In this document: positions 12,246 to 51,395 of the stretch, piece after piece
Layout of the letters: each line of letters starts with the position of its first letter
Numbering within the stretch: position 1 is the stretch's first letter
From: Candidatus Nanoarchaeia archaeon
Lineage (GTDB): Archaea > Nanobdellota > Nanobdellia > SCGC-AAA011-G17 > GW2011-AR17
Direction: 5' to 3'
Assembly: GCA_028706745.1 (NCBI GenBank)
Contig: JAQTVM010000001.1
Location: forward strand, 12,399 to 76,398
DNA: 64,000 nucleotides
Made by a program: the position numbers and the translations under genes
Notes under the pieces: model-generated
The model's database searches: none
What the model saw: the letters and a program-made list of their open reading frames with translations, nothing else
What the model was told of the DNA's origin: nothing

Positions 12246-12299
12246 AATACAGCATTTTTAAAGGGAATATTTATAAACCTAAGTATTATTACTAATGCC

Positions 12300-14321
12300 A
12301 TGGCAGGAAAAGACGCCAAAAGCCTCGAAGAAAGGCTCAGATTGGGCTTTGACTGCGATGCACTATGTTCTACAGAGCAAAAAAAGGAAGAGCTCAGAAT
12401 TAACAAGGTAAACGGGATGGGCGCTTTCCTGAAAGAGGATTATTCATCAGCAAGGCAGTTCTTTATCAATGCAATTCCCAAAACAGGCGACAAGCAGGAG
12501 AAAGAATGGTTTTACAGGAAGATAATAGAGTGCTCAAAAGAGCTTTTTAAGAACCTGATGGACAACCAGCTTGAAGACAAGGCAGAAGAAGAGTTCAAAA
12601 GAGTATGCGCCGGGTATGAGCATCTGATAAAGGCATTTGAAACATCTGATAATTACCTTGACTATATGTCTTTTGTAGGCTTTGAGATGAGCGACAAATA
12701 TGACAAAAATCTTTTTGAAGAGGCAAAAAAAATAGGCGAAAAGGCATTATGCCGTTTCCCTGAAGACCATCGCCTTTACAAGGAAATGTATGACTTATGC
12801 ATTTACACGCAGGATGATGAACTGGAAGATAATTGTATACACACGGCTGCAAAGCTAAAATTCAACGATGCAGATTATATGCTTGATTCTTTCGGCAACG
12901 CATTATGGCAGAGGCATAAGGATAATGGGATTATTCCTTTTCAGACAATAATGGAATGCAGGGGCGGGGCTTTGTATGAAAACCCCGCAGCGCTGCAGAA
13001 ATACGGCAAATACATGGTTGACAATGTTGCAGGCAATGATAAGCTTGCGCTCCATATGCTTTATACAGCATACTGCAAAAAGCCGCTTATGCCCGGATTA
13101 AAGGAAGACCTTGTTGATGCTTTTGAGCAAACCATGGAATATATGAAAAAGAATAATGCGCCAATTGCAGAAAGAAAGCTTTTCATCGCCAGATACCAAA
13201 AAATTCTTGAAATCAGGAAAGAACTTGCAGGGGAAAATGAAAAAGAGAATGAAAAAAGCGCAGACCGGAACAGGTTTTCAAGCGAGATAGTTGTTGTGAA
13301 CCCAAAAGAAATAAAGCAGTACCTTGACCAGTATGTGATAGGGCAGGAGCAGGCAAAAAGAGGAGTTTCAGTGGGATATTACATGCACCTCCTGCGCCTT
13401 AAGCACCAGGGAGAAAAGAATTCAAAAATGGACAAGAGCAACATCCTTCTTCTCGGTCCTACAGGCTGCGGAAAAACATATATGCTGCAGATACTTGCGC
13501 AGATGTCAAAGGTTCCATTTGTAATATTCGACACTTCAAAGATAACATCAGCAGGCTATGTAGGAAGCGATGCAGAAGACTGCCTTAAGTCCCTCGTGAA
13601 TGCGGCAGAAGGGGACATTGAGCTTGCACAGAGAGGCATAGTTTACCTTGATGAGGCTGACAAGATAAAGGCAAAGCCCGGATACGGGAAAGATGTCGGC
13701 GGAGAAGGCGCACAGCAGCAGCTTTTGAAGCTTTTGGAAGGCTCGATTGTAAATGTCGGCGGGCATAATGAGAAAAAGTTTCAGATAGACACAAAAAACA
13801 TACTTTTTGTCGTTGGCGGGGCTTTTTCATACACAGAAGAAGGCGGCAGCATTGGTGACAGGATTCAGTGCAGGGAAAAGGTCGTAGGATTCAGGATGCA
13901 AAAAGACGAGCCGGAAGAAACAAAAACATGCAAAGAAGATAAAAAGAACATTGTTACAAAGCTCACTGACAAGGATTTGCACGAATATGGTTTCCTGCCT
14001 GAATTCATTGGCAGATTGCATTACAGAATTGTGCTTGACTCGCTTACAAAGCCCGAACTGAGAAGAATCCTCACAGAACCCGGAAATGCAATCATACCGC
14101 AATATGAAAACGCGTTCAGGCTGTCAGGAATAAAGCTGGTAATAAGGGATGATGCCCTTGACACAATCGCAGAAGAGGCATTTGCCTTGAATGCAGGCGC
14201 AAGAAGCCTCAAGACAATCTGCGACAAGATATTTGAAGACGCATTGTTCCACCTTCCGGGCAGCAGCACCACGGAGTATATTGTCAATAGAACGGAAGTA
14301 ATGCGCTACATAAAGAAATAG
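12300..14321 (+). CDS. ClpX-like AAA+ unfoldase with novel ~345-aa N-terminal alpha-helical domain
   Basis: C-terminal 330 aa match ClpX nearly motif-by-motif. Shared motifs: YVIGQEQAK, GPTGCGKT, GYVGSDAED, QRGIVYLDEADKI, GGEGAQQQLLKLLEGS, YGFLPEFIGRL and GARSL. A VGF tripeptide sits at the IGF-loop position. The N-terminal Zn-binding domain of ClpX is absent. ATG at 12300 is preceded by TTTATAAAC at 12269. Confidence 0.75.
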   Translation: MAGKDAKSLEERLRLGFDCDALCSTEQKKEELRINKVNGMGAFLKEDYSSARQFFINAIPKTGDKQEKEWFYRKIIECSKELFKNLMDNQLEDKAEEEFKRVCAGYEHLIKAFETSDNYLDYMSFVGFEMSDKYDKNLFEEAKKIGEKALCRFPEDHRLYKEMYDLCIYTQDDELEDNCIHTAAKLKFNDADYMLDSFGNALWQRHKDNGIIPFQTIMECRGGALYENPAALQKYGKYMVDNVAGNDKLALHMLYTAYCKKPLMPGLKEDLVDAFEQTMEYMKKNNAPIAERKLFIARYQKILEIRKELAGENEKENEKSADRNRFSSEIVVVNPKEIKQYLDQYVIGQEQAKRGVSVGYYMHLLRLKHQGEKNSKMDKSNILLLGPTGCGKTYMLQILAQMSKVPFVIFDTSKITSAGYVGSDAEDCLKSLVNAAEGDIELAQRGIVYLDEADKIKAKPGYGKDVGGEGAQQQLLKLLEGSIVNVGGHNEKKFQIDTKNILFVVGGAFSYTEEGGSIGDRIQCREKVVGFRMQKDEPEETKTCKEDKKNIVTKLTDKDLHEYGFLPEFIGRLHYRIVLDSLTKPELRRILTEPGNAIIPQYENAFRLSGIKLVIRDDALDTIAEEAFALNAGARSLKTICDKIFEDALFHLPGSSTTEYIVNRTEVMRYIKK

Positions 14322-14367
14322 TTTTCTTACAGATAGATTTATATTCTCTTTTTTACCTCCCAAACCT

Positions 14368-15234
14368 ATGGAAAACTGGGTAAAGGCAGGAAAAATAGCA
14401 GCAGAAAGCCTGAACTACGGCTGCGAACTGGCAAAGCCCGGAATCAAGCTGTTAGAGTTGGCAGAGAAGATAGAGGCAAAAATCAAAGAATTGGGCGGAA
14501 AGCAGGCATTTCCTGTAAATCTCTCCTTAAATGAGCTTGCAGCGCATTACACGCCTGCGTCTGATGACACAACAATCCTGAAGGCAGAAGACTTGCTTAA
14601 GATAGATGTTGGCGTGCATATTGAAGGGCATATAGGCGATTGCGCAAGAACAGTGGGAGATGACAAAGAATTAATACGAGCTTCAGAAGCCTGCCTTGCA
14701 GCGGCAATTCCACTTTGTGTTCCCGGAAGAAAAATAAGGGAAATCGGGAAGGCAATAGCGGAAGCTGCAAACGAACACGGATTCATTTCAATAAGAAACC
14801 TCTCCGGGCACGGAATTTCTCATTTTGACCTGCACTGCGGATTAAGCATCCCTAATTTTGACAACGGCGATGAAACAGTATTAAAAGAAGGCGCAATAAT
14901 CGCAATAGAGCCTTTTGTCACAAGAGGAAACTCAGCAAGAGTCAGTGAAGGAAAGCCCTCGGGCATATACAAACTTGAAAAAGTAAAGCCGGTAAGGGAT
15001 ATGAATGCCAGAAAGATTCTCAGTTTCATTGCAAATGAATACTCGAGCCTGCCATTCGCGTCAAGATGGCTTGAAAAGGAATTCCCGAAAGCAAAGTTCT
15101 ATATCCAATTATTAATAAAAGAAGGAATCCTGCGCAGTTATCCGCAGTTATACGAATCCTCAAAAGGAAATGTAAGCCAGGCAGAACATACAATACAAGT
15201 AAAGGAAAATCCCGTTATACTCACGCAAGCTTGA
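14368..15234 (+). CDS. map: methionine aminopeptidase, type 2 (archaeal)
   Basis: 288 aa; pita-bread fold metal ligands in a MetAP2-like arrangement. Confidence 0.85.
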   Translation: MENWVKAGKIAAESLNYGCELAKPGIKLLELAEKIEAKIKELGGKQAFPVNLSLNELAAHYTPASDDTTILKAEDLLKIDVGVHIEGHIGDCARTVGDDKELIRASEACLAAAIPLCVPGRKIREIGKAIAEAANEHGFISIRNLSGHGISHFDLHCGLSIPNFDNGDETVLKEGAIIAIEPFVTRGNSARVSEGKPSGIYKLEKVKPVRDMNARKILSFIANEYSSLPFASRWLEKEFPKAKFYIQLLIKEGILRSYPQLYESSKGNVSQAEHTIQVKENPVILTQA

Positions 15235-15276
15235 TAATTCTTAAAAAAGAAATAGGAAAATAAAAAGAAAAGAGGT

Positions 15277-16179
15277 TTACTCGTAGTGTATATTATTCTT
15301 CGTGGTGATTGTCTCTTCAATCTTATCGGCAAATCCTTTTCCTATGCTGTACCCGAAATGCGAGAACATTCTTCCGAAAAATGACGGGTTCTGCACCATC
15401 AGTGTGCCGACATAAGTGTTCTTGAAGTTCCCTCTTTTTTCGCAGGATTTTATTGCTGTCCTCAATGTGCCTGTCCTGTCAACAAGCCCCATTTTTGCTG
15501 CGTCAATACCGTCCCATACATAGCCGTTTGCATATCCTTCAAGCTGGCTCTTTGTCATCCTGTCGCCTGCCTTCTCTTGCCTGCTTTCATAAACAAGATT
15601 GACAAATCTCTCGTGGTGCCTCTTTACAAGGTATTCAAGGTGCTGCCTTTCCTCTGGTCTTAATTCCCTGAACATTGACATGAAGTCCTTTTCTTCCTTT
15701 GATTTTATTACCTCAAGCTTAACTCCAATTTTTTCCATCAGCTCCTTGACAACAAACTTGTTCATTATTACGCCGATGCTTCCGATTAATGCGTCTTCCG
15801 CAACAATTATCTCGTCGCAGCCGCACGCAGTCATGTAAGCGCCTGAAGCGCAAAGACTGTTCACGTAAGCCACCTTCGGCTTTTTCACTTTTCTTACCAA
15901 GTCATAAATTGTCTTGCTTGCTCCTGCCTCTCCTCCGCCTGAGCTTATGTCAAGAATAATTCCCTTTACCCTGTTATTTTCCTCCAAGCCCTTGAGAATC
16001 TTCTCAAGCCCCTGGGGTGTTGTGGGACCGGGCGCATAGTCCTTAGGTCCTGCATTCCCTATCTGCCCGTTGAAAGGCACTCTTATAATCTGGCTGTCTC
16101 CCTTCTTGTACTCGTCTATTTTCCTTTTTATCATGGGGTATCCTATCAGCCCCAGAAACAAAAGACTTATGTAATCCAT
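15277..16179 (-). CDS. sppA: signal peptide peptidase SppA (S49, ClpP/crotonase fold), 36K type
   Basis: ILDISSGGG oxyanion region and SLCASGAYMTACGCDEI catalytic-Ser region typical of SppA. Confidence 0.75.
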   Translation of the reverse strand: MDYISLLFLGLIGYPMIKRKIDEYKKGDSQIIRVPFNGQIGNAGPKDYAPGPTTPQGLEKILKGLEENNRVKGIILDISSGGGEAGASKTIYDLVRKVKKPKVAYVNSLCASGAYMTACGCDEIIVAEDALIGSIGVIMNKFVVKELMEKIGVKLEVIKSKEEKDFMSMFRELRPEERQHLEYLVKRHHERFVNLVYESRQEKAGDRMTKSQLEGYANGYVWDGIDAAKMGLVDRTGTLRTAIKSCEKRGNFKNTYVGTLMVQNPSFFGRMFSHFGYSIGKGFADKIEETITTKNNIHYE

Positions 16180-16750: not shown

Positions 16751-18748
16751 ATGATAAGAAAAAATGAATCACAGAAAGACATACTTTTGTTTAATTATTT
16801 GAAAGATAAACGTTCTTTTCAAGAAAAATGGAATACTAAAAAAACAACAAATAAGTTTATTCAACCAGTTCTTGATACTTCAAGTAAGAAAAAGAATGGG
16901 CAAAGAGGAGAACCTGATTTTGTATATGTAAACGAAAAAAGGAAAATATTAATATTAATAGAAAATAAAGATGATATTAATCAACATAAATCTAAAAATG
17001 AAGATAATCCTATAACTTATTCTGTAGACGGTATAAAACATTATTTAAGTTGTTTTAAGAAGGATTATCTAGAAAATTTTAATATTACAATTAAAAAATA
17101 TTTAAATGATTGGAAAATTGTTGGGATTGCTGTATCTGGAAATATTGAGGATGAATATAACCATTTAATCTCTACTTATACTCTCCAAGAAGATGAAGTA
17201 AAAGATATAGAAACAGAAGAAATACTTAATGAAGAGGATTACCTCTCTTTATTTGAGAATATCAATTTAGAAAAAATAACAAGAGATATATCCTTATCAT
17301 CAAATAAGATTAATAATCTTTTACGTTCTTTAGATTCACAAAAGAGACCCATTCTCCTTAGTGCTTTAATGATATGTTTATTTGAACCCAAAAATATTCA
17401 AAATGATTTCAAAAATAACTATTCTAATTGGACAGCAAACACAATTATAACGAATATTCCACTAATAATAAAAACGATTTTAGGAAATGAGGGGATACCC
17501 TCGGAAAAGATTGAAGTATTAAATAATGAACTGACATTTATTAAAACAGATTTAGAACTTAAAAATACAGATATATTGAAGGATATACTCAATGAGCTCG
17601 AGAATAATGTTATCCCACAATTTAATAAAAGCCATAATTATGATATTATTGGGAAGTTTTATGAAGATTTTTTGAGATATGCAGGAGTAACAAATGTAAA
17701 AAAAGGGATTATTTTAACACCTGCCCACATTACTAAATTATTTACAGAATTAATTGATGTTAAAACAAATGATGTTATTATTGATACTTGTTGTGGGACA
17801 GGGGCATTTCTTATTTCAGCGATGAATAAAATAATTGAGGAAATAACAGATTCAAGTATTAAAAATAAAAAAGATTTAATTGATAAAGTTAAACATAAAC
17901 AGTTAATTGGTATCGAAAAGAATACGACCATGTATACTCTCGCAATCTCTAATATGCTATTTAGGGGGGATGGTAAATCCAATATTTACCATTTAGATTC
18001 TTTTTCAAAAGAAGCAGATAAGATTTTATTAAATCTTAAAAAGAGGGGAATTATTCCAACAATCGGCTTTATCAATCCGCCTTATGGCGGTAGAGATAAT
18101 AAAGAAAATCCTACTAAAAAAGAAATTCAATTTTTAGAAAGATTATTGGATAATGTTAGCCGATACGGTATAATCATTGCACCATTGTCTACTTATTTTA
18201 AAGAAGAGATTATTAGAAGTAGAATATTATCCAAGCACACTTTGAAATATGTGATAAATATGCCAAAAGAATTATTTCAACCAAATGCATCTACACATAC
18301 AGCTATTGCAGTATTTAAAACAAATTTACCCCATAATAATAAAGAAGTTATATTTTATAATCTTCAAGATGACGGATTAGTTTTATCAAAAAATAGGGGC
18401 AGAACAGATGCATTAAATAAGTGGGCAAAAATAAAAAAGGAATTATTAACAAAATTGAATAATCCTAAAAAATATGCTGATGGAATAAATCTCGTTATAA
18501 CAAAAATCAGTAATGGGGATGAATGGATATTACAAGCTCATGCAAAAACAGATTATACTAAGATTAATGAAAGAGCATTTATTAATAGTATAAAGCAATA
18601 TATTATCTTTTCAACGAAGAGAAAACTAGGTCTATTAGACAGAGATATTGATGAAATAACCTTATTGGAGATACTTAATGAAAATAAGATAAATGCCAAT
18701 GCTTTACTAAGAGATGTTAAAATTAAAGAAAAAAATGAAAAGATATAA
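16751..18748 (+). CDS. fused restriction-modification enzyme (N-terminal PD-(D/E)xK nuclease plus gamma-class N6-adenine DNA methyltransferase), BcgI-A-like / Type IIB-IIG
   Basis: N-terminal EPDFVYV...ILILIENK (PD...ExK); MTase motif I VIIDTCCGTGAFL and motif IV FINPPYG (NPPY). Confidence 0.75.
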   Translation: MIRKNESQKDILLFNYLKDKRSFQEKWNTKKTTNKFIQPVLDTSSKKKNGQRGEPDFVYVNEKRKILILIENKDDINQHKSKNEDNPITYSVDGIKHYLSCFKKDYLENFNITIKKYLNDWKIVGIAVSGNIEDEYNHLISTYTLQEDEVKDIETEEILNEEDYLSLFENINLEKITRDISLSSNKINNLLRSLDSQKRPILLSALMICLFEPKNIQNDFKNNYSNWTANTIITNIPLIIKTILGNEGIPSEKIEVLNNELTFIKTDLELKNTDILKDILNELENNVIPQFNKSHNYDIIGKFYEDFLRYAGVTNVKKGIILTPAHITKLFTELIDVKTNDVIIDTCCGTGAFLISAMNKIIEEITDSSIKNKKDLIDKVKHKQLIGIEKNTTMYTLAISNMLFRGDGKSNIYHLDSFSKEADKILLNLKKRGIIPTIGFINPPYGGRDNKENPTKKEIQFLERLLDNVSRYGIIIAPLSTYFKEEIIRSRILSKHTLKYVINMPKELFQPNASTHTAIAVFKTNLPHNNKEVIFYNLQDDGLVLSKNRGRTDALNKWAKIKKELLTKLNNPKKYADGINLVITKISNGDEWILQAHAKTDYTKINERAFINSIKQYIIFSTKRKLGLLDRDIDEITLLEILNENKINANALLRDVKIKEKNEKI

Positions 18749-19745
18749 ACTAAATCTAAAAAATTGGAAATATTTTAATTTTAATGATATATTTTCATTT
18801 GAGAGGGGAAAAAGGCTTGTTGAATTAGACCAAATAGGGGGAGATATACCTTATATTGCATCTTCCAAAAAAAATAATGGTATAACAAATACAATTAATC
18901 CTCCTGAATTTATGAAATTATATCGGAATGTTTTAACTCTAAATAATAGCGGGAGTGTAGGATATTGTTTTTATCAAGAATCAGATATAGTATGTTCAGA
19001 CCATGTAACTGTAATATGGATTAAAGATGAAAATGTTAAACTAAATCCATATACTGCTTTATATCTAAAACCTATAATAGAATCAATGCAATATAAATTT
19101 AATTTTGCTAGAGAAATAAGTGATGCTAGGTTAAATAAAGAAAAGATATTACTTCCAACTGACAAAAATGGTAATCCTGACTGGTATTTTATGGAAAATT
19201 ACATAAAGCATATTTCTAAGAGAATAAAATATGATAAGGTAATAAATTTAAGAATAGCGAAGAAATTAGATACCCAGAAATGGAAATGGTTCGATATAGG
19301 AAGTTTATTTGAAATTAAAAAAGGAGAACGATTAATTGAAGAAGAACGAATTAGGGGTGAAATCCCTTTGATTACTGCCTCATCTGAAAATAATGGCGTT
19401 GTTGATTTAATATCCTACCCACATTTTAATAAAGAAAAAAAATGTTTTGAAAATAAGATAACAATTGATATGTTCTTCAATGTATTCTACCATAATTATA
19501 AATATTTTAGTGATGATAATGTTCATACTTTAATACCACTTTTTGAAAAAGTAAATACTTATATTTCATTATTTTTAGTAGCAGTTCTTAAAGAATTACA
19601 ATTTAAATATGCTTATGGTCGACAATTAAGAATAAAAAGATTAGAATTAGAAAAAATTAAGCTTCCCATAGATAAAAGAGGTAAACCTAATTGGGTATAT
19701 ATGGAGGATTATATTAAATCCTTGCCTTATAGCTCAAATCTTTAG
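18735..19745 (+). CDS. specificity (S) subunit with two target-recognition domains (HsdS/BcgI-B-like)
   Basis: Two internal repeats: WKYFNFNDIFSFERGKRL...PYIASSKKNNG and WKWFDIGSLFEIKKGERL...PLITASSENNG. ATG at 18735 overlaps the stop of the upstream gene by 14 nt. Confidence 0.75.
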   Translation: MKRYKLNLKNWKYFNFNDIFSFERGKRLVELDQIGGDIPYIASSKKNNGITNTINPPEFMKLYRNVLTLNNSGSVGYCFYQESDIVCSDHVTVIWIKDENVKLNPYTALYLKPIIESMQYKFNFAREISDARLNKEKILLPTDKNGNPDWYFMENYIKHISKRIKYDKVINLRIAKKLDTQKWKWFDIGSLFEIKKGERLIEEERIRGEIPLITASSENNGVVDLISYPHFNKEKKCFENKITIDMFFNVFYHNYKYFSDDNVHTLIPLFEKVNTYISLFLVAVLKELQFKYAYGRQLRIKRLELEKIKLPIDKRGKPNWVYMEDYIKSLPYSSNL

Positions 19746-19753
19746 GTATATAT

Positions 19754-20029
19754 TTAAGCATTCTTATCTAATTTATTCTTCCCCACTTTCCTGCCAGTTT
19801 TTATATTCCACTTTGCCATACATTCTTCAATAGTATACCACATATAGCATCCCCTATCGCCCTTAAATGCCCTGTATAAGAGTCCAAACAAAAACCATTT
19901 GGTTACTCTCTTTTGCTTTGAGAAAAAAGCCCTGAAAGCATATATAAACGCTATCGGACTCCAAATAATGTGCCTATAGAACCTTTTCCAGAAAGGGGGC
20001 TTAGGGTTTTGCGGTTTTGATGGATTCAT
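19754..20029 (-). CDS. hypothetical small protein
   Basis: 91-aa ORF, basic/hydrophobic, no family recognised. Confidence 0.2.
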   Translation of the reverse strand: MNPSKPQNPKPPFWKRFYRHIIWSPIAFIYAFRAFFSKQKRVTKWFLFGLLYRAFKGDRGCYMWYTIEECMAKWNIKTGRKVGKNKLDKNA

Positions 20030-44993: not shown

Positions 44994-45323
44994 TTACTGT
45001 CTTAAGCCGGCCAGCTTTGAAACAAGCTCATTGAAAACAACCTGCTTTTTTTCTTTTGGCAAAGAAAACAATATTTTCTGAACCATTGCCTCTGATATTG
45101 TAAAGATGTAATTAAGCTTGATTATGCTGTCTTTTACAGCGCCTTCTTTCCTTGAAAGCGCAATCCCTTCCATTGAAGTGTTGGATGTTATCCCTGCAAC
45201 AGCCACATTGCCGTGCTCCTCAAATAATACAAGAGCAGGCCGCTTTTTAACTTCAAAAGTGTCCGCAAATTGGACAGAGGCAAGCACCACATCTCCCGCC
45301 TTAAGCATTCTCCCACACCTCAT
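44994..45323 (-). CDS. MazF/PemK-family toxin
   Basis: GDVVLASVQF...KKRPALVL...VAGITSN pattern of the CcdB/MazF fold. Confidence 0.55.
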   Translation of the reverse strand: MRCGRMLKAGDVVLASVQFADTFEVKKRPALVLFEEHGNVAVAGITSNTSMEGIALSRKEGAVKDSIIKLNYIFTISEAMVQKILFSLPKEKKQVVFNELVSKLAGLRQ

Positions 45324-45522
45324 CTTCCTTGTTGTCCCAAAGCTCTTTCATCTTTTGCTGTTGTATCTTGTGCAGGAATTCATCGTATTGGTTTCTTTTC
45401 TTTACGCTATGGAATACCTTTATCATATGCTCAATCAGCTCGGCATAAGTCTGCCTTGGATATTCCTTCAGCTCCTGCATTGCCTTAACAAGCGCCTTGT
45501 CTATCTGTATTGTCGTGTTCAT
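45301..45522 (-). CDS. ribbon-helix-helix antitoxin (partner of MazF-like toxin)
   Basis: Internal Met start MNTTIQIDKALVKAMQEL; 23-nt overlap with the toxin gene. Confidence 0.45.
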   Translation of the reverse strand: MNTTIQIDKALVKAMQELKEYPRQTYAELIEHMIKVFHSVKKRNQYDEFLHKIQQQKMKELWDNKEDEVWENA

Positions 45523-45600
45523 TATATATTCACTATAGTTGGCATATAATCTATTATATATAAGCCTTGCGGATGTTTTGGTTTTGACTATATTTTCCAT

Positions 45601-46434
45601 TCAGGCGCACCCCTCTTTCCTTAAGCCGTCATAAGGGCTTTTAACCGAAATAAAGGCAGAAGGGCACATGTGCACATAAACCATTGTTGTTTCCGCACTG
45701 CTGTGCCCCATCAGGGGCTGGACAGCTGAAACACTGTATCCATTTTCAATCAAATGAGTTGCAAAAGAATGCCTTAATGAATGCGGATGAACCTTCTTCT
45801 TAATGCCTGCCTTTCTTGCAGCATCCCTTACAGTCTCCTGCACGCTCCTCGGATGAAGCGGAAAGCCATTTCTTCCTGCAAACAGCCAATCCTCTCCTGC
45901 ATCACAAACAGCCTTTTTCAGCCTTTCACGCAGGCACTCTGCTATAATAAAAGGCCTGTCCTTGTTTCCCTTTCCGTGCCTTACCCATCCAATGCATCTC
46001 TCAAATTCAAAATCAATAGTTCTTAGGTTAAGAGCCTCGCTTACCCTTAATCCTGCAGAATACAACAACTCAAGAATAAGCCTGTGCTTTTCATTATCAA
46101 CAGCAGAAAAAAGTCGAAGCACCTCATCTTTTGTAAGGAATACAGGCAGCGTTTTCGGCACCTTTGAATACTTAATCCGCCAAGTGACTCTTTTGTGCAA
46201 AACCTCTTCCATCAGGAACTTCAGCGCATTCACGTGCACGTTCAGCGTATTGCCGCACTTATTCTCCGCAACAAGCACGTCGATATAATCCCTAACATCC
46301 TTTGACGTAACGCGCATGAATTCCTTAGGGCAAAAGCGCATGAACTGCCTGACACACTGTATATAAGTAAGGATTGTCTTTCGGCTTAGCCCTCTTCTAA
46401 GCATCTCTTTTTGCATGTTGTAGATAGCGTCCAT
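45601..46434 (-). CDS. tyrosine recombinase, XerC/XerD/XerA-like, without IntI-specific insertion
   Basis: C-terminal HPHSLRHSFATHLIENGYSVSAVQPLMGHSSAETTMVYVHM (R..HxxR...Y). Only ~55 aa lie between the KGNKDR and LRHSF boxes, versus ~100 aa in IntI. Start taken at MDAIYNM (46434). Transcribed away from the cassette array. Confidence 0.8.
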   Translation of the reverse strand: MDAIYNMQKEMLRRGLSRKTILTYIQCVRQFMRFCPKEFMRVTSKDVRDYIDVLVAENKCGNTLNVHVNALKFLMEEVLHKRVTWRIKYSKVPKTLPVFLTKDEVLRLFSAVDNEKHRLILELLYSAGLRVSEALNLRTIDFEFERCIGWVRHGKGNKDRPFIIAECLRERLKKAVCDAGEDWLFAGRNGFPLHPRSVQETVRDAARKAGIKKKVHPHSLRHSFATHLIENGYSVSAVQPLMGHSSAETTMVYVHMCPSAFISVKSPYDGLRKEGCA

Positions 46435-46469: not shown

Positions 46470-46620
46470 TTCGCACAAAATTCCGCAGGATTTCCGGCAA
46501 CCCTTGGAAAACCCACCAAGCCAGTCGAAAATTATATGCAAAAATAGGCAAAAGACACAAAAATTTACAACATCGCCGAAAGCACTTTTTGAGAACCCTC
46601 GTCAAAGCTGGCTAACTAAA
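46470..46620. repeat. ~140-bp noncoding element, copy 2, in the attI-like region between recombinase and first cassette
   Basis: see copy 1 at 38092..38228. Confidence 0.7.
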
Positions 46621-46705
46621 ACGTGACGACAAAAAATCAAACAATGGCTCTACCAAAAGCCGCCTGAAACCCGCAAAAAGAATGAATTCCTGTGTCTTCT
46701 CGCAT

Positions 46706-46736
46706 ATAGACTGTTAGGCAACATTTGGGTTTGGGC
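46706..46736. repeat. attI-like junction: unique left half (CATATAGACT) plus conserved right half GTTAGGCAACATTT plus left inverted repeat of cassette 1
   Basis: GTTAGGCAACATTTGGG is identical to the start of cassette 4; the left side is unrelated to the attC-like left half. Confidence 0.55.
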
Positions 46737-46748
46737 TAAAAACACTTC

Positions 46749-46979
46749 TTAGAATTTTGCATATAATGGTTCTTTGGGAATTTTTATCATGTAACTATGT
46801 TTACCAACAATTATAATTCCTTCTTCTAAGCCCCATTCAAATAAGTCTTGAGGATTAAACTCAGGAGGAACTCCACCCCTATAAGGTCTAGCCATTAAAC
46901 CTTCTATTCCCTTTCTTAATGCGATAGGCTCAAAAATATGTCCGTCTATTTCTGAAAAAAATTTGTATATATCAAACAT
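46749..46979 (-). CDS. cassette 1 ORF, hypothetical 76 aa
   Basis: Bracketed by the inverted repeats TTTGGGTTTGGGC (46724-46736) and GCCCAAACCCAAA (47038-47050). Confidence 0.35.
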   Translation of the reverse strand: MFDIYKFFSEIDGHIFEPIALRKGIEGLMARPYRGGVPPEFNPQDLFEWGLEEGIIIVGKHSYMIKIPKEPLYAKF

Positions 46980-47037
46980 TTTTTACTCCTATTCATTGTT
47001 AATATTATACCCCTATATAAGTATTATGGTTTTAAAC

Positions 47038-47162
47038 GCCCAAACCCAAACGCTGCGCCCCTGCGGGGGCTTGCCCGACCAGCTCTGGAGCTTGCTGTGA
47101 GGCTCACTTCGCTCGCACTCCAGCTGCGCTCCGAGGGTCGGGTCGCCTAACAGTCGTTAGGC
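47038..47162. repeat. attC-like site 1: cassette IR plus GC-rich module plus palindromic core GCCTAACAGTCGTTAGGC (47145-47162)
   Basis: about 70% GC in a <40% GC genome; conserved blocks AAACGCTGCGCCCCTGCGGGGGCTTGCCCG ... CGAGGGTCGGGTCGCCTAACAGTCGTTAGGCA. Confidence 0.7.
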
Positions 47163-47233
47163 ACAATTTGAGTTGGGACTTCCCCACCGACAAAAGCAAT
47201 ACATTTATATATTTCTAGCAATTTACAAAGGAT

Positions 47234-47566
47234 ATGGTTAGAAAAATATTAAGAAAAACAATAGAAGATTTACCTGTTTGGAAAATAAAATATGGATTAA
47301 CAAGAGGCGATCTAATTCTTATTCATGAATTAGCATTAATCACATTTAAACCTAATGTATTAAATAACTATTTTAAACAAGAGATGGGTGGGGTTCTTGG
47401 TCGTAATCAAGATTGCTCCATTATTTACTTTGCTCGCAATCTCCTTTTAGAAAAGGGTTTGCCACATGCTTTTGTCGGAATGAAATCTGATATGGATGGA
47501 GAAGATTATAAGTTAATACCTGTATCAGATATAGAATCTTACGAAACTCTTAAATTAAAACCTTAA
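47234..47566 (+). CDS. cassette 2 ORF, hypothetical 110 aa
   Basis: Bracketed by TTTGAGTTGGGAC (47167-47179) and GTCCCAACTCAAA (47579-47591). Confidence 0.35.
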   Translation: MVRKILRKTIEDLPVWKIKYGLTRGDLILIHELALITFKPNVLNNYFKQEMGGVLGRNQDCSIIYFARNLLLEKGLPHAFVGMKSDMDGEDYKLIPVSDIESYETLKLKP

Positions 47567-47578
47567 TTGTATATATTC

Positions 47579-47714
47579 GTCCCAACTCAAACTTCTCCGC
47601 TCCTCGCCTGCGGGCTGCGGTGCTCGACCTGCGCAGCTCTGGGCTCGTCAGGAGTGCTCGCTGTCGCTCGCCTCGACTTCGCCCGAGGCGCAGGGTGCCT
47701 AACAGTCGTTAGGC
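47579..47714. repeat. attC-like site 2 (divergent GC-rich module plus core 47697-47714)
   Basis: Same terminal GCCTAACAGTCGTTAGGCAACATT; the GC-rich body is more diverged than at sites 1, 3 and 4. Confidence 0.65.
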
Positions 47715-47766
47715 AACATTTTCCAAAAAGTCCGAAAACACAAAAAGGGAAAGGAAAAAGAATTAT

Positions 47767-48075
47767 CTAAATTCTAGCAGCAACCAAGGGATTATAATAA
47801 TAATCAAACACTAACATAACTGGGGATTTGTTATATATTTTCACTAATTGCCAACCACACTCTTGTTTAGAGGTATGTTTATATTGTTCAAGTACCTTAC
47901 TAAGAGTTCTAATATTTATATCATTTCCAAAAGTTATAGTAGCATGACAAGAAGTTTCATCAGAAGTATAATTATATTCCTTCTCCAATCTCAAAGCTTT
48001 ATTTAATGCTTTACGGATCTTTTGTTCAAGATTTTGATTTGGTGTTGTCTTATCTACTCTTAATTTTATATCCAT
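47767..48075 (-). CDS. cassette 3 ORF, hypothetical 102 aa
   Basis: Bracketed by ATTTTCCAAAAAGTCCG (47718-47734) and CGGACTTTTGGAAAAC (48193-48208). Confidence 0.35.
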   Translation of the reverse strand: MDIKLRVDKTTPNQNLEQKIRKALNKALRLEKEYNYTSDETSCHATITFGNDINIRTLSKVLEQYKHTSKQECGWQLVKIYNKSPVMLVFDYYYNPLVAARI

Positions 48076-48192
48076 TTTTACCCCCTACAATGTTGTTATT
48101 TAAGAGATATGACAAATATATAAGCCTTTCGGTGAGAGGTTATTTATTCCTTTCCCTCATTAACCTATCATTAAAGGGCTTCGCCCCGTTAG

Positions 48193-48313
48193 CGGACTTT
48201 TGGAAAACGCTGCGCCCTGCGGGGCTTGCCCGCTCATCCTCGAACTCGCCATGATGGCTCGCTCCGCTCGCCTCGGCTCGTTCGGGGAGCGGGTCGCCTA
48301 ACAGTCGTTAGGC
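48193..48313. repeat. attC-like site 3 (GC-rich module plus core 48296-48313)
   Basis: see site 1. Confidence 0.7.
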
Positions 48314-48332
48314 AACATTTGGGAACCGAAAC

Positions 48333-48560
48333 TCAGTCCCTTAAAGGCAATTTTCCACATATTTCATCAAAGTGTGTAACCTTGATATCATATAGAGAAT
48401 AAGTAGAATATTTTGTACCAAAGTTATCATTTATTGCATTTATTGCCAATGTGTAGGCTACTACTTTATCTTCATTAGGTTTTCCAAATCCATTTAATTC
48501 ATGTAATACCATATGTTGTAGCGATTTTACGACTTTGTCTAAAGAAGTTTGTTCTGTCAT
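48333..48560 (-). CDS. cassette 4 ORF, hypothetical 75 aa
   Basis: Bracketed by TTTGGGAACCGAAA (48318-48331) and TTTCGGTTCCCAAAC (48608-48622). Confidence 0.35.
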   Translation of the reverse strand: MTEQTSLDKVVKSLQHMVLHELNGFGKPNEDKVVAYTLAINAINDNFGTKYSTYSLYDIKVTHFDEICGKLPLRD

Positions 48561-48607
48561 TATAATACCACCTCAATAGGAAAGAATTATCTTTCAGTTT
48601 TTATAGC

Positions 48608-48754
48608 TTTCGGTTCCCAAACGCTGCGCCCCTGCGGGGGCTTGCCCGCCCAGCTCTGGGGCTTGCCCGCCCAGCTCTGGGGCTTGCCAGGATGGCTCGC
48701 TACCGCTCGCCTCGGCTGCGCCCCGAGGGTCGGGTCGCCTAACAGTCGTTAGGC
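48608..48754. repeat. attC-like site 4 (GC-rich module with internal 21-bp tandem duplication plus core 48737-48754)
   Basis: CTTGCCCGCCCAGCTCTGGGG occurs twice inside the module. Confidence 0.7.
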
Positions 48755-48810
48755 AAAATTACAGGCGGCTCATAAGACTAATAACAAGAAAAGAACAAAC
48801 GGCGGGCGGC

Positions 48811-49281
48811 TTATTGGCTGTTTTTCCATTTTTCCCACAAATGTGCAGCGTCTCTTACATTCAGGCTTTCAAATAGATAATTATACATATTTATTGCGGT
48901 TTGCCTGGCAGGGCGCTCTTCGTAAATCAGCCCAAAGCCATGTTCCTGTTCTGCTATGTCATATACGTCAAGAGTCTGGTTGCATCCTGTATCTATAAAC
49001 CTTTCATAAAAGAATCCGCCGGGCTGTGGCTTTTTGCTAATAAGGTTTTCACAGCCCCCATAAACAACTACTGTAAATGTAGGGCTATTATAGCTTTCGC
49101 GGTGCTCAAAGGTATATTCGCCACATTCTACCCTAAAGCCCTCTTCCATAAAGGCAACATTTGCTTCATTGCATATATTGCCTATTGTATCTATTGTCGT
49201 TTCTCTATTATTTACACCTGTTGTTGCGCATCCTGCTCCAAGTGCAAGTGCTGCTAATCCACCAAATATTGCTTTTTTCAT
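48811..49281 (-). CDS. putative secreted lipoprotein (cassette 5)
   Basis: Signal peptide with LGAGC lipobox-like Cys; paralogous to the next gene; locally elevated GC. Confidence 0.4.
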   Translation of the reverse strand: MKKAIFGGLAALALGAGCATTGVNNRETTIDTIGNICNEANVAFMEEGFRVECGEYTFEHRESYNSPTFTVVVYGGCENLISKKPQPGGFFYERFIDTGCNQTLDVYDIAEQEHGFGLIYEERPARQTAINMYNYLFESLNVRDAAHLWEKWKNSQ

Positions 49282-49335
49282 TTTGATTTACCTCCCTCAA
49301 TATATCTTATACAGCAATAATCTACTGCGGGCGGC

Positions 49336-49878
49336 TTATAATTTTTCTTTTGCCTGATGCCATTCCGCAATAAGTCGCTCAACATCAAATGTACTTGTGA
49401 TTGTCTGCATATATGAATCATATGCACTATTGCGGAATGCCTGCGCTTGCTCTTCCGCCCCGGGTTCCTCTAAATCAAAGGAGCACCGCAGCCCGCAGGT
49501 GAAGAGCGGAGAAAGAGGACCAGCAGGTCCATGCTCAAATGTCCTGTCGCAACCTTCGTCTGAAAAATATTGATGATTTATCTGTGCATCTGACTGAAAC
49601 ACGTCCAATGTTATTCTTACGCATCCTGTACTCTCCGCATATTCCTGCCTTCTCCATACTGTTTCTGATTCCAAATTGCCGTTATTTACAACTCTTACCG
49701 CAAGTTCTAATTGTTCTTCATTCCAATAAATATCGCCAGAAATAACTTCTGCCCCATTTTGCGTCAGGACATTACTACTTTGACCGTACAAAGGCAGATC
49801 CCTTGCGCAATCTAATCCGGCTGCTGCTAAAGTCGCCAATCCGGCAACCGCGACTGATGATATTATTCTTGCTTTCAT
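49336..49878 (-). CDS. putative secreted lipoprotein paralog (cassette 5)
   Basis: Signal peptide AAAGLDC; similar C-terminal region (..AEWHQAKEK vs ..HLWEKWKN); flanking sequence duplicated (ACAGCAATAATC..). Confidence 0.4.
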   Translation of the reverse strand: MKARIISSVAVAGLATLAAAGLDCARDLPLYGQSSNVLTQNGAEVISGDIYWNEEQLELAVRVVNNGNLESETVWRRQEYAESTGCVRITLDVFQSDAQINHQYFSDEGCDRTFEHGPAGPLSPLFTCGLRCSFDLEEPGAEEQAQAFRNSAYDSYMQTITSTFDVERLIAEWHQAKEKL

Positions 49879-50079
49879 TTTGATTTACCCCCTAAACATA
49901 CTTTCTACAGCAATAATCCACTCCTTCCTTATAAGCCTTACGGAGAACGCCGCCCGCCAACGACGAATATGCCGCCTGTAACTCACCAGATGTCGCTCGC
50001 TGCGGCTCGCTACATCGGTGCCGCGCAGCAGCAGGCTCGCCGTGAAGCTATATTCAACTGTCCGATATATTCGGACAAT

Positions 50080-50595
50080 TCAGCTAAAAATAATATCTTT
50101 CGTCGCATCAATTAATTCTTTACAAATATTTTTTAATTTACTTATCTTCGCCTCATTCTCAACAGAAATCTGCACGCCGTATGTATAGTCCTCCCTCATG
50201 CCAATAATGCTGTCCATATCTTCATATTCCAATAATTCAATAAACTTATCATCCAGGCTGATCTTTTTCTCTTCTTTCAAATATCTCATTAAAGCAATTG
50301 TGCATGTCTGGTTTCCGGATTCAAACCCGAATTTTGCCGCAATAGCCAAAAAGCAATGATAAATGCAATAAAACCCGGCTGACATTGACCAGTCTGAAAA
50401 TCCGTCTCTTTTAAAAACAGTTATCCCATCCAGGTCATGCTCTGCCTTTGCAAGATGCTTTTTTGCTTCCTCAATATCCGGCTTGCCTTTCAATAATCCC
50501 CTGTGCTTTAGCCTTTTCCCTAACTTTTTGCATTCTTCAATCTCTTTTTTTGCCTTGTTCAGGCACCATTCAATTTGGTTAAAAGCGTGCGGCAT
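50080..50595 (-). CDS. HEPN-like domain protein (partner of downstream MNT), cassette 5
   Basis: N-terminal helix pattern AKKHLAKAEHDL typical of HEPN; 17-nt overlap with the MNT gene; HEPN Rx4-6H motif not clearly identified. Confidence 0.35.
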   Translation of the reverse strand: MPHAFNQIEWCLNKAKKEIEECKKLGKRLKHRGLLKGKPDIEEAKKHLAKAEHDLDGITVFKRDGFSDWSMSAGFYCIYHCFLAIAAKFGFESGNQTCTIALMRYLKEEKKISLDDKFIELLEYEDMDSIIGMREDYTYGVQISVENEAKISKLKNICKELIDATKDIIFS

Positions 50596-51169
50596 CTTTC
50601 ATTATCTCCACATATTTATCCTGCCCATATAATACAATAGCATTTTTGACTATATCAATAATGGCTTTGTTTCTCTTTTTAAGGTTTTCCAGCAAATCTT
50701 GCTGTGTCACCATAATAGCATGAAGCTTTTTAGGCAGCATCTCTTCTTTTTTGTTAATGAATTTATTTATTTCTTTAATATCATTTTTATTCATCACAAC
50801 CATAATATCAATATCGCTTGCCTGAACATAGTTCTTAATGGCAGAGCCGTAAATCATTACAATCCTGCCTTCCTTAAAAACTTCCTTAAATTCCTCTTTC
50901 CATCTTTTGAAGCTATTGGCTTCATCAGCAAGCAAGAAAGCTATAAGCTGGCTGACATAAGCCTCCTCAAAATTCAGCCTGTAATTTATTGATTTGCCTA
51001 TTTGCCTGCTTATTACTAAATTTTCCTTAAACAGCCTTTTGAACAGCTTTTGGGCGCCAACATGGCTTATATCCAGTATCTTGCTTATGGAGTTGGCATT
51101 ATAAAATGCAGTGAACTCCTTGAATAAAACAAGCAAGCATTCCCTTTCAGTTAACGTTAAAGACACCAT
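50579..51169 (-). CDS. wHTH plus minimal nucleotidyltransferase protein (cassette 5)
   Basis: IYGSAIKNYVQASDIDIMVV NTase motif; N-terminal wHTH; same architecture as 37447..38073. Confidence 0.6.
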   Translation of the reverse strand: MVSLTLTERECLLVLFKEFTAFYNANSISKILDISHVGAQKLFKRLFKENLVISRQIGKSINYRLNFEEAYVSQLIAFLLADEANSFKRWKEEFKEVFKEGRIVMIYGSAIKNYVQASDIDIMVVMNKNDIKEINKFINKKEEMLPKKLHAIMVTQQDLLENLKKRNKAIIDIVKNAIVLYGQDKYVEIMKDAARF

Positions 51170-51312
51170 ATTAACTCCAAGTTACTATATAGAAACTATG
51201 AATTACTATATAAACCTTTCTATCCCTAATGACGAAAAACCCCACCTCCTTTATTTTTCGGACAAATAGAGCCTGCGGCGGAGAGATATATCGCCCACCA
51301 AGCCTTATGTCT

Positions 51313-51330
51313 TCCTAACAGTCGTTAGGC
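51313..51330. repeat. core site 5 (TCCTAAC-AGTC-GTTAGGC) without GC-rich module
   Basis: seen directly; followed by GAAATTACAGGCGGCTCACAAGACTAATAACAA, near-identical to the start of cassette 5 (48755-48790). Confidence 0.7.
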
Positions 51331-51395
51331 AGAAATTACAGGCGGCTCACAAGACTAATAACAACTATTAAATATCTGCAAAGCATAATCCTAAT

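Follow-up and report, generated by a model that had tools for sequence, protein, structure and literature searches.

The archaeal integrons described by Ghaly et al. (2022; PMC9668308) combine an IntI integrase that carries an additional domain with canonical attC sites of R''-L''...L'-R' architecture, for example GCCTAAC-...-GAGTC-GTTAGGC of 58 nt. Integrons are the standard example of structure-specific recombination on a single strand. IntI is thought to need its I2 insertion to act on single-stranded attC, and how it evolved from Xer-like double-strand recombinases is an open question (PMC7790495). Archaeal XerA is a chromosome-dimer resolvase that works on one double-stranded DNA (dsDNA) dif site, and it also binds stem-loop DNA (PMC8371274). 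In the case of CTX-phi, a folded single strand presents the Xer substrate and is integrated by one strand exchange (PMC7790495). The locus described here lies in a stretch of 64,000 nucleotides (hereafter the window) from Candidatus Nanoarchaeia archaeon (assembly GCA_028706745.1, contig JAQTVM010000001.1, positions 12,399 to 76,398 of the forward strand). It is an integron-like platform in a DPANN (Nanoarchaeia/Woesearchaeota-type) archaeon, in which the gene of a XerA-type recombinase is followed by an attI site and then by a tandem array of cassettes. The two ends of each cassette are complementary to each other, a property that belongs to the cassette and not to the site as it stands in the array, and the inverted repeats (IRs) that bracket each cassette gene are the outermost layer of this nested complementarity, which begins at the crossover.

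The array of the window holds five cassettes, with boundaries set here at G|TT. Between them lie GC-rich hairpin modules that end in the palindrome GCCTAAC-AGTC-GTTAGGC; in the four small cassettes, which have one open reading frame (ORF) each, the modules are about 90-115 nt long. An 18-mer, GCCTAACAGTCGTTAGGC, closes each of these modules (starts at 47145, 47697, 48296 and 48737). The core palindrome has five matches in the window, including a TCCTAAC variant at 51313, against 0.14 expected by chance; all lie on the plus strand, all have the asymmetric centre AGTC, and all modules and cores share one orientation. An earlier note on this DNA, made from the letters alone, had reported perfect IRs of 13-16 bp at each cassette. 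The positions are right and the repeats are perfect in cassettes 1 (13 bp), 2 (13 bp) and 4 (14 bp), but that of cassette 3 is imperfect, with arms of 16 and 15 nt and a one-base bulge (A5 faces T4). Because the initial TTT/AAA (3 bp) is part of a conserved motif, the cassette-specific part measures 10-13 bp. The single fixed sequence that the note had placed before every left copy is present in cassettes 1, 3 and 4 (GTTAGGCAACATT), whereas cassette 2 has GTTAGGCACAATT. In cassettes 1, 3 and 4 the complementarity extends inward through the conserved stretches GCAACATTT / AAACGCTGC, with two mismatches that read A.C on the top strand and become G.T wobbles on the bottom one.

Perfect 13-mer IRs spaced 200-700 nt apart occur seven times in the 64-kb window; four of these hits are the three perfect cassette pairs, and block shuffles give a mean of 0.7. 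Short units bounded by IRs superficially resemble miniature inverted-repeat transposable elements (MITEs), and the repeats might be transposon termini inserted into a tandem repeat, or have arisen by chance. This idea is already contradicted. Each IR is unique, with no further copy of any arm within the window; there are no target-site duplications or flanking direct repeats; and termini recognised by a transposase would be conserved between copies, whereas these differ in every cassette. Chance is excluded by the block shuffles and by the scores of cognate against non-cognate arms given in the next paragraph. The probability left to either origin is close to negligible.

Related arrays were gathered by exact-motif scans of genome and metagenome collections and from contigs encoding homologues of the recombinase. 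Most hits of the exact 18-mer scans were unrelated, some of them in Hymenobacter and Peptococcaceae, and only archaeal loci were used. The 18-mer GCCTAACAGTCGTTAGGC also occurs once per genome in Succinivibrionaceae (L002, L007-L009, L015 and others), where it is followed by a T-run; this hairpin has the look of a conserved intrinsic terminator and would have no connection with the archaeal arrays. The sample comprises 50 cassettes, 38 of them unique, in 10 arrays: the window's own (W) and L011, L012, L023, L025, L039-41, L046 and L047, the L-numbers denoting contigs or loci. The rule proposed for the window, of cassette-specific IRs at fixed offsets from the conserved site, extends to these arrays. 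Almost every cassette has an outer IR, with a left arm (IR_L) that starts at nt 11 or 19 after the crossover and a right arm (IR_R) whose last base lies 106-130 nt from the cassette end and borders the GC module on its 5' side. Among the 38 unique cassettes, cognate arms score 10.7 on average, as against 5.3 for non-cognate arms (95th percentile 8).

The 9-nt half-sites at the crossover follow the same pattern. The right arm of a cassette pairs with its own left arm at 8.41 of 9 positions (perfectly in 26 of 41), whereas the two arms that meet in one in-array site pair at 6.82 of 9 (p = 1.5e-6 against own-cassette arms). Watson-Crick pairs make up 95% of the own-arm helix and 70% of helices with shuffled partners, and six positions of the own-arm helix show two to four pair types. 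Arm alleles include GTTAGGTGA, GTTATATTC, GTTAGTTTC, GTTGTATTC, GTTATATGA, GTTAGTTAC, GTTAGGCAC and GTTATGCAC. Cassette 2 of the window illustrates the rule, since its half-sites GTTAGGCAC / GTGCCTAAC match 9/9 and those of its neighbours read GTTAGGCAA / TCGCCTAAC. Covariation, which the earlier note had suggested looking for, is seen in the half-site arms and in the basal helix of the second module hairpin, and the outer IR supplies one compensated change: homologues of cassette 1 have TTTGGGTTTGGGC/GCCCAAACCCAAA in W and TTTGGGTTCGGGC/GCCCGAAACCCAAA in the L012 family, a T to C on the left being matched by G on the right, plus one extra A. With many arm alleles and private IRs complementary within cassettes while the in-array sites are chimeric, the pairing of cassette ends appears to be under selection, and the likely substrate would then be the excised cassette, folded as a single strand or as a cruciform.

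What, then, is the role of such private repeats? We consider it probable (roughly 0.6) that each cassette has a recombination structure of its own and that the repeats form the two strands of its basal helix. The site of a free circular cassette would read IR_R - AAAC - two GC-rich hairpins - xxGCCTAAC - AGTC - GTTAGGCxx - AACATT - IR_L, would be self-complementary at three nested levels (half-sites, AACATTT/AAACGCT and outer IR) and would fold to a three- or four-way junction. Strand exchange takes place at G|TT, which in this structure would lie next to the tip of the half-site hairpin, whereas in classical attC it lies at the base of the fold. On insertion at attI, TTAGGC-AACATT-IR_L (25-35 nt) would go to the cassette start and IR_R-AAAC-module-GCCTAAC to the cassette end. 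A crossover so near the tip would split the cassette site into two halves, which is why the promoter-ORF unit in the array would look bracketed by a private IR; the intact site would exist only in the excised form. The structure would form in vivo either in single-stranded DNA (ssDNA), with the bottom strand the more probable, or in the excised circle as a cruciform, and the outer IR would stabilise or nucleate it. The recombinase would need the fold, most likely for attC x attI insertion via single strand exchange; this need, like the formation of the fold in the cell, we infer from sequence comparison. The earlier note had likened the IRs to the L boxes of attC, for which the complementarity of R'' and R' across the crossover is the better analogue, and the 9-nt half-sites behave alike.

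Folding of the cassettes as ssDNA, also proposed in the note, gives predictions that agree with this structure. When the 3' end of a cassette is joined to its own 5' end, the rejoined site is predicted to form a multi-branch structure with an outer stem (IR plus AACATTT/AAACGCT), a short GC hairpin, a long imperfect GC hairpin and a half-site hairpin with a loop of 3-4 nt; as the note had expected, the IRs pair, with the core palindrome and the GC-rich module inside them. In the long hairpin, a basal helix of 7 bp adjoins the left arm; it is 86% Watson-Crick (55% with shuffled partners), each position showing two to four pair types. Rejoined junctions fold at -28 to -51 kcal/mol and are more stable than in-array junctions in 28 of 30 comparisons, by a mean of 11.3 kcal/mol. 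In whole-cassette circular folds, 21-30 of the first 35 nt pair to the 3'-terminal region. The bottom strand folds more stably than the top in 34 of 38 cassettes. Loops of the GAA, GAAA and GNNA type closed by C-G are known to stabilise DNA mini-hairpins, and among 91 module loops read on the bottom strand 37 are of this G..A type (GAA, GAAA, GNNA; mostly C-G closed), with one of T..C type. Cells of the arm and hairpin-2 helices that are not Watson-Crick comprise 15 of A.C and one of G.T on the top strand, A.C becoming a G.T wobble on the bottom. The conserved L046 motifs AATATTACTCGG / TGCGTCATACT would form many T.C 'pairs', which suggests that they are not paired at all.

A canonical attC does not emerge from these sequences. 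If R'' is taken as the last bases of IR_R plus AAC, and R' as GTTAGGC, only AAC/GTT and two or three further bases pair, and the candidate L' pairs with R' itself; this mapping was rejected. GCCTAAC and GTTAGGC stand 4 nt apart (3 nt in L046) with no L boxes between them, and the GC module lies 5' of R'', so the order R''-L''-variable loop-L'-R' is absent.

Several points weigh against a folded cassette as substrate. The gain in energy on rejoining follows automatically from the complementarity and is no independent evidence. The A.C cells come mostly from a few alleles and do not count as independent, and the wobble test (G.T against A.C) restricted to the outer IR gives 6 against 4. Some cassettes have an outer IR of only 7-8 bp, or one with indels, and arms that match at 6/9 occur in 4 of 41. 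The half-site hairpin would offer one protein-binding duplex with a 3-4 nt loop, not the R box, spacer and L box of attC, and the recombinase is without the I2 insertion. Okazaki fragments of archaea are short, which limits long stretches of ssDNA. The case is wholly in silico, and the circular form is a prediction.

The recombinase is itself closest to XerA. Its best family match is NCBIfam NF040815 XerA_Arch (214 bits, cut-off 220), and it is collinear with the XerA structures 4a8e and 5hxy. The match to TIGR02249 IntI (196 bits) is below the cut-off of 265 and split in two. Against Vibrio IntI4/VchIntIA (2a3v) the alignment stops at 178/182 and resumes at 198/246, some 44 residues of the I2 region (183-245) being absent; the additional domain specific to IntI (I2 helix around patch III) is thus missing. 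The protein is 100% identical to an NCBI entry labelled 'Candidatus Nanoarchaeia archaeon', and hundreds of relatives with 50-85% identity occur in Woesearchaeota/Nanoarchaeota assemblies. Upstream of its gene the motif CGCATATA-N4-GTTA is found in W, L025, L039, L040, L041 and L046/47; it recurs in L042-45, with weaker versions in further contexts, and accompanies the gene in all orthologue contexts for which sequence was read. Together with arrays that diverge immediately to the right of GTTA, this conservation marks attI, beside the recombinase gene, as the point of cassette insertion. The centre GACT of attI is the reverse complement of the AGTC of attC in the window; this relation is not seen in L039, L040, L044 or L046 and was put down to coincidence.

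Classical integrons have their crossover at G|TT. In the W family, attI agrees with the cassette sites from the G of GTTAGGC rightward and differs from them at all 6 nt to the left. L046 and L047 have an identical recombinase, an identical sequence left of the attI junction and a common distal array, with different first cassettes right after GTTA, and L044 and L045 likewise diverge immediately to the right of GTTA. A GTTG variant in L046 travels together with a CAAC where its cassette ends. One limit of the junction is set by the base before the G (T in attI, C in attC), the other by position 4-5 of GTTA(G/T), which moves with the cassette. Exchange thus falls within TAAC-N3/4-GTT, in keeping with the classical G|TT, at a resolution short of the precise bond.

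Such a recombinase could also act as a pure Xer/dif-type system on dsDNA. A XerA homodimer would then recombine an 11-6-11 site, the cassettes would be elements stacked at a dif-like site in the manner of integrative mobile elements exploiting Xer (IMEX), and the IRs and arm complementarity would have no role in recombination, being a historical residue or serving, for example, maintenance of the excised circle. The XerA-like sequence, collinear with solved structures and without I2, favours this, and the site reads as two inverted arms with 6 bp between them, GGGTCGCCTAA-CAGTCG-TTAGGCAACAT, the layout of a 28-bp dif (imperfect 11-6-11 palindrome). The attC centres are identical within an array, which makes attC x attC excision on dsDNA feasible, and most in-array sites of L046 cannot form the arm hairpin although arrays still turn over. 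Left unexplained would be at least eight arm alleles and 38 outer IRs that are complementary within the cassette but not within the site. The centre is 3 or 4 nt long among the sites of one array, and strand asymmetry of mismatches and loops would be unexpected for a site used only as dsDNA. Insertion fits poorly as well. The attI and attC of the W family differ at all 6 nt left of G|TT and thus offer no homologous overlap, so that a two-strand exchange over an overlap of 6-8 bp is unlikely. A single strand exchange resolved by replication, as in integrons and CTX-phi (PMC7790495), suits insertion better. Excision, between direct attC copies whose centres are identical, may still proceed as an ordinary reaction on dsDNA. 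On balance we regard a system acting on dsDNA throughout as unlikely, and as the most serious alternative to the folded cassette site.

The content of the arrays turns over, with cassettes that are common to several arrays or differ between them. Elements measure 0.25-2.6 kb, and up to 18 cassettes are found in L046, where two 86%-identical copies of one cassette occupy positions 2 and 17. The same cassettes do occur elsewhere, as the earlier note had proposed checking, and their homologues stand behind different neighbours. A homologue with 94% identity to the cassette 1 protein and the same IR_L lies in L054 behind a GAACGAAAATCC-type cassette, and not behind attI. Another, with 70% identity (L012/L048/L050-53), lies behind ACAGGCGGC-type cassettes with two cargos (L012/L048/L051 versus L050/L052). 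L012_846 and L039_15661 have 99.8%-identical cargo in different arrays, with different 3' modules and left arms. Homologues of the cassette 2 ORF, sought as a test of cargo inversion, were not found, and this protein is an orphan.

Irregular elements are also seen. The cassette 1 homologue of L054 (~575-639) diverges from the window exactly at the expected start of IR_R and is without module, which may be due to a rearrangement or to an insertion at the IR boundary. Four cassettes of 231-270 bp in L046 (13268-13789 and 17738-18214, in window-like orientation) have no plausible ORF, and two share an inner sequence of 86 nt; these are perhaps empty or RNA-coding. In L039 the initial 4.3 kb beyond attI (11318-15660, window-like orientation) carry transposase fragments (Y2_Tnp, DDE_3, HTH) in place of small cassettes, and an insertion sequence seems to have landed in this array.

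Exchange of cargo suggests a further origin for the IRs, as scars or handles of cassette genesis or cargo exchange. A promoter-ORF unit would have been spliced into a palindromic site element, for instance by fold-back or template-switch synthesis or by recombination between short IRs, and the repeats would be dispensable later. Several cassettes with a common GAACGAAAATCC/GGATTT(C|TG)CGTTC IR and flanks of 50-150 nt around different ORFs fit this account, as do the near-identical cargos of L012_846 and L039_15661, the L054 divergence at the IR_R boundary and the ORF-less cassettes. No mechanism is known, however, that makes inverted, and not direct, duplications at both cargo joints, and neither the covarying half-sites beside the crossover nor the constant offsets of the IRs from the site would be accounted for. 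Such an origin is quite improbable.

Each ORF in the window cassettes has a TATA-like box about 40-50 nt and a motif like a Shine-Dalgarno (SD) sequence 5-8 nt upstream of its ATG, all inside the IR bracket, and three of the four small cassette ORFs point towards attI. These are not promoterless, co-oriented cassettes driven from a common promoter (Pc). The symmetry of the IRs had been offered in the note as the reason why ORFs can take either orientation; this freedom is explained instead by the cassette-borne promoters, and the modules and cores all lie one way. Could the repeats act at the level of RNA, as a transcript stem, a processing site, a terminator or an operator flanking each gene? 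Bottom-sense RNA of the GC modules would have GNRA-like loops, and most ORFs are transcribed in this direction. For the minus-strand ORFs, however, IR_R lies upstream of the TATA box, so that IR_L and IR_R are not on one transcript, which excludes a role in the mRNA. All IRs differ, so no common regulator could bind them, and in the array the IR_L of one cassette adjoins the module of the preceding one and not its cognate partner. Nothing in Rfam matches the array above threshold, the one sub-threshold hit being taken as chance. A regulatory role is accordingly very improbable, though not as remote as transposon termini or chance.

Compared with classical integrons, the locus has the same arrangement of a recombinase gene beside attI followed by tandem cassettes of small, mostly orphan ORFs. 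The G|TT crossover likewise lies in a GTTRRRY-type box, and GCCTAAC/GTTAGGC are identical to common R''/R' boxes. The distal part of the R'-like box opens each cassette and can pair with that cassette's own R''-like box. The more stable fold is that of the bottom strand, arrays from different samples diverge directly at attI, and toxin-antitoxin cassettes are present. Unlike in classical integrons, the recombinase has no IntI-specific I2 insertion, the R''- and R'-like boxes are 3-4 nt apart without L''/L' boxes or variable loop between them, a long structured GC module lies outside (5' of) the R''-like box, and an extra cassette-specific helix, the IR, closes the whole structure. About 25-35 nt go to the cassette start, as against 6 nt classically, and complementarity of 6-7 bp between R'' and R' is extended to about 25-35 bp because the crossover lies inside the structure and not at its base. 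The cassettes have promoters of their own and mostly face attI. The locus works like an integron, yet departs from one in integrase domain, attC architecture and Pc-driven expression.

Other relatives are found among Xer systems. With Xer/dif and IMEX, and with the ssDNA integration of CTX-phi in particular (PMC7790495), the locus has in common a Xer-family recombinase without I2 and the stacking of mobile DNA at a single site of the chromosome. In CTX-phi two inverted dif-like sites pair, which rebuilds both arms and a bulged centre along one stem, whereas here a single palindrome would fold on itself to give one arm duplex; moreover, the recombinase gene adjoins the site, and the elements are promoter-ORF units of 0.25-2.6 kb in arrays of up to 18. 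The archaeal XerA/dif systems of Pyrococcus and Thermoplasma (PMC8371274) provide the best match to the recombinase in sequence and structure and have a palindromic target with a short centre, but cassette arrays, GC modules and cassette-specific IRs are not part of them as described.

Acinetobacter plasmids have pdif (dif) modules, small gene modules that lie between Xer-type sites in alternating, inverted orientation and often hold toxin-antitoxin or accessory genes. All sites of the present locus are direct repeats beside a dedicated recombinase and attI, with structured modules and complementarity at the level of the cassette. Neither the core motif nor the accession of this metagenome-assembled genome is present in the supplement of Ghaly et al. 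(2022; PMC9668308), and no description of XerA-linked cassette arrays in DPANN was found in the literature searched, which did not extend to subscription journals.

A wider reading is tentative and falls somewhat short of even odds. DPANN archaea (Woesearchaeales/Nanoarchaeia) would carry a widespread integron analogue based on an I2-less XerA-type recombinase, with a branched, self-complementary cassette site that is split by the crossover and intact only when excised, and with insertion at attI by single strand exchange on folded DNA. Such a system may survive as a relative of the Xer-like ancestor from which integrons came, or structure-specific capture of cassettes may have arisen here independently. 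The arrays follow integron logic (attI, G|TT, R''/R'-type boxes, turnover) with an I2-less Xer-type enzyme and a different site geometry, and the cassette-level complementarity yields a testable prediction, the folded excised cassette as substrate. If this is true, the system offers a handle on how a Xer-type enzyme can use folded DNA, would explain hypervariable islands of orphan genes in reduced DPANN genomes, and would suggest why such arrays might escape annotation tools built around IntI and canonical attC. Should the fold prove irrelevant, the locus would still be an undescribed XerA-linked cassette array.

Table 1. Features of the cassette array and its recombinase gene, in positions of the window.
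Feature	Position	Strand	Basis
XerA-type tyrosine recombinase, 277 aa, presumed cassette integrase	45601..46434	-	profile and structure comparison
attI CGCATATA-GACT-G|TTAGGC, cassette insertion point	46701..46719	+	motif conserved upstream of orthologues
Cassette 1 (ORF 46749-46979, minus strand)	46714..47156	+	G|TT boundaries; own TATA/SD
IR_L of cassette 1, TTTGGGTTTGGGC	46724..46736	.	IR search
IR_R of cassette 1, GCCCAAACCCAAA	47038..47050	.	IR search
GC-rich module of cassette 1, short hairpin and long imperfect hairpin	47051..47144	+	folding, alignment
Core GCCTAAC-AGTC-G|TTAGGC, cassettes 1/2	47145..47162	+	motif search
Cassette 2 (ORF 47234-47566, plus strand; orphan protein)	47157..47708	+	G|TT boundaries; own TATA/SD
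IR_L of cassette 2, TTTGAGTTGGGAC	47167..47179	.	IR search
IR_R of cassette 2, GTCCCAACTCAAA	47579..47591	.	IR search
GC-rich module of cassette 2, divergent AACTTCTCCGC class	47592..47696	+	folding, alignment
Core palindrome, cassettes 2/3	47697..47714	+	motif search
Cassette 3 (ORF 47767-48075, minus strand)	47709..48307	+	G|TT boundaries; own TATA/SD
IR_L of cassette 3, TTTTCCAAAAAGTCCG; 1 nt longer than its partner	47719..47734	.	IR search
IR_R of cassette 3, CGGACTTTTGGAAAA	48193..48207	.	IR search
GC-rich module of cassette 3	48208..48295	+	folding, alignment
Core palindrome, cassettes 3/4	48296..48313	+	motif search
Cassette 4 (ORF 48333-48560, minus strand)	48308..48748	+	G|TT boundaries; own TATA/SD
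IR_L of cassette 4, TTTGGGAACCGAAA	48318..48331	.	IR search
IR_R of cassette 4, TTTCGGTTCCCAAA	48608..48621	.	IR search
GC-rich module of cassette 4, internal 22-nt duplication	48622..48736	+	sequence, folding
Core palindrome, cassettes 4/5	48737..48754	+	motif search
Composite cassette 5: two lipoprotein-like ORFs, truncated module, HEPN/nucleotidyltransferase pair	48749..51324	+	ORFs, IR
IR of cassette 5, ATTACAGGCGGC / GCCGCCTGTAA	48758-48769 / 49971-49981		
Last core TCCTAAC-AGTC-GTTAGGC, without GC module upstream	51313..51330	+	motif search

Cassette 5 belongs to a family also present in L001, L012, L020 and L023. Its two lipoprotein-like ORFs are paralogous and each is followed by a GGCGGGCGGCTTA-like sequence; then come IR_R GCCGCCTGTAA, a truncated GC module without palindrome (~49983-50075) and the HEPN/nucleotidyltransferase toxin-antitoxin pair. 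The whole looks like two cassettes joined through loss of the site between them. A 33-nt inverted copy, 94% complementary, of the 5' part of the cassette 2 module (47593-47625) lies at 49481-49513 in the lipoprotein-like ORF 49336-49878, and may be a module fragment captured by the gene or an ORF reading through a degenerate site.

At the last site (51291-51330), CGCCCACCAAGCCTTAT (51292-51308) lies 4 nt upstream of the left arm, and ATAAGGCTGGGTGGGCGA, its reverse complement, opens the cassettes of one family in other arrays (L005, L012, L030 and L048). Beyond this site ATTACAGGCGGCTCACAAGACTAATAACAA (51335-51365) repeats the start of cassette 5 (48758-48788), with no matching IR_R or module following, so that the distal border of the array resembles a cassette start. 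GCCGCCTGT at 58774 was considered as the distal partner of ACAGGCGGC at 51338 and rejected as chance, since it lies inside a coding region and has no module.

A perfect 13-nt IR, ATTATATGCAAAA, links the spacer between recombinase gene and attI (46531-46543) with the 3' part of the cassette 1 ORF (46755-46767); it is AT-rich and possibly due to chance. Directly downstream of the recombinase gene, on the minus strand (44994-45600), are a gene for a PemK/MazF-like toxin and an overlapping DUF7557 gene, and the recombinase orthologue in L044/L045 is flanked by HicAB or RHH/PIN pairs. There are no tRNA genes near the array. Further away, 3 kb of the window (17001-20000) have a G+C content of 0.26-0.28, compared with about 0.41 elsewhere, and may be a foreign island or an rRNA-free, AT-rich gene cluster.

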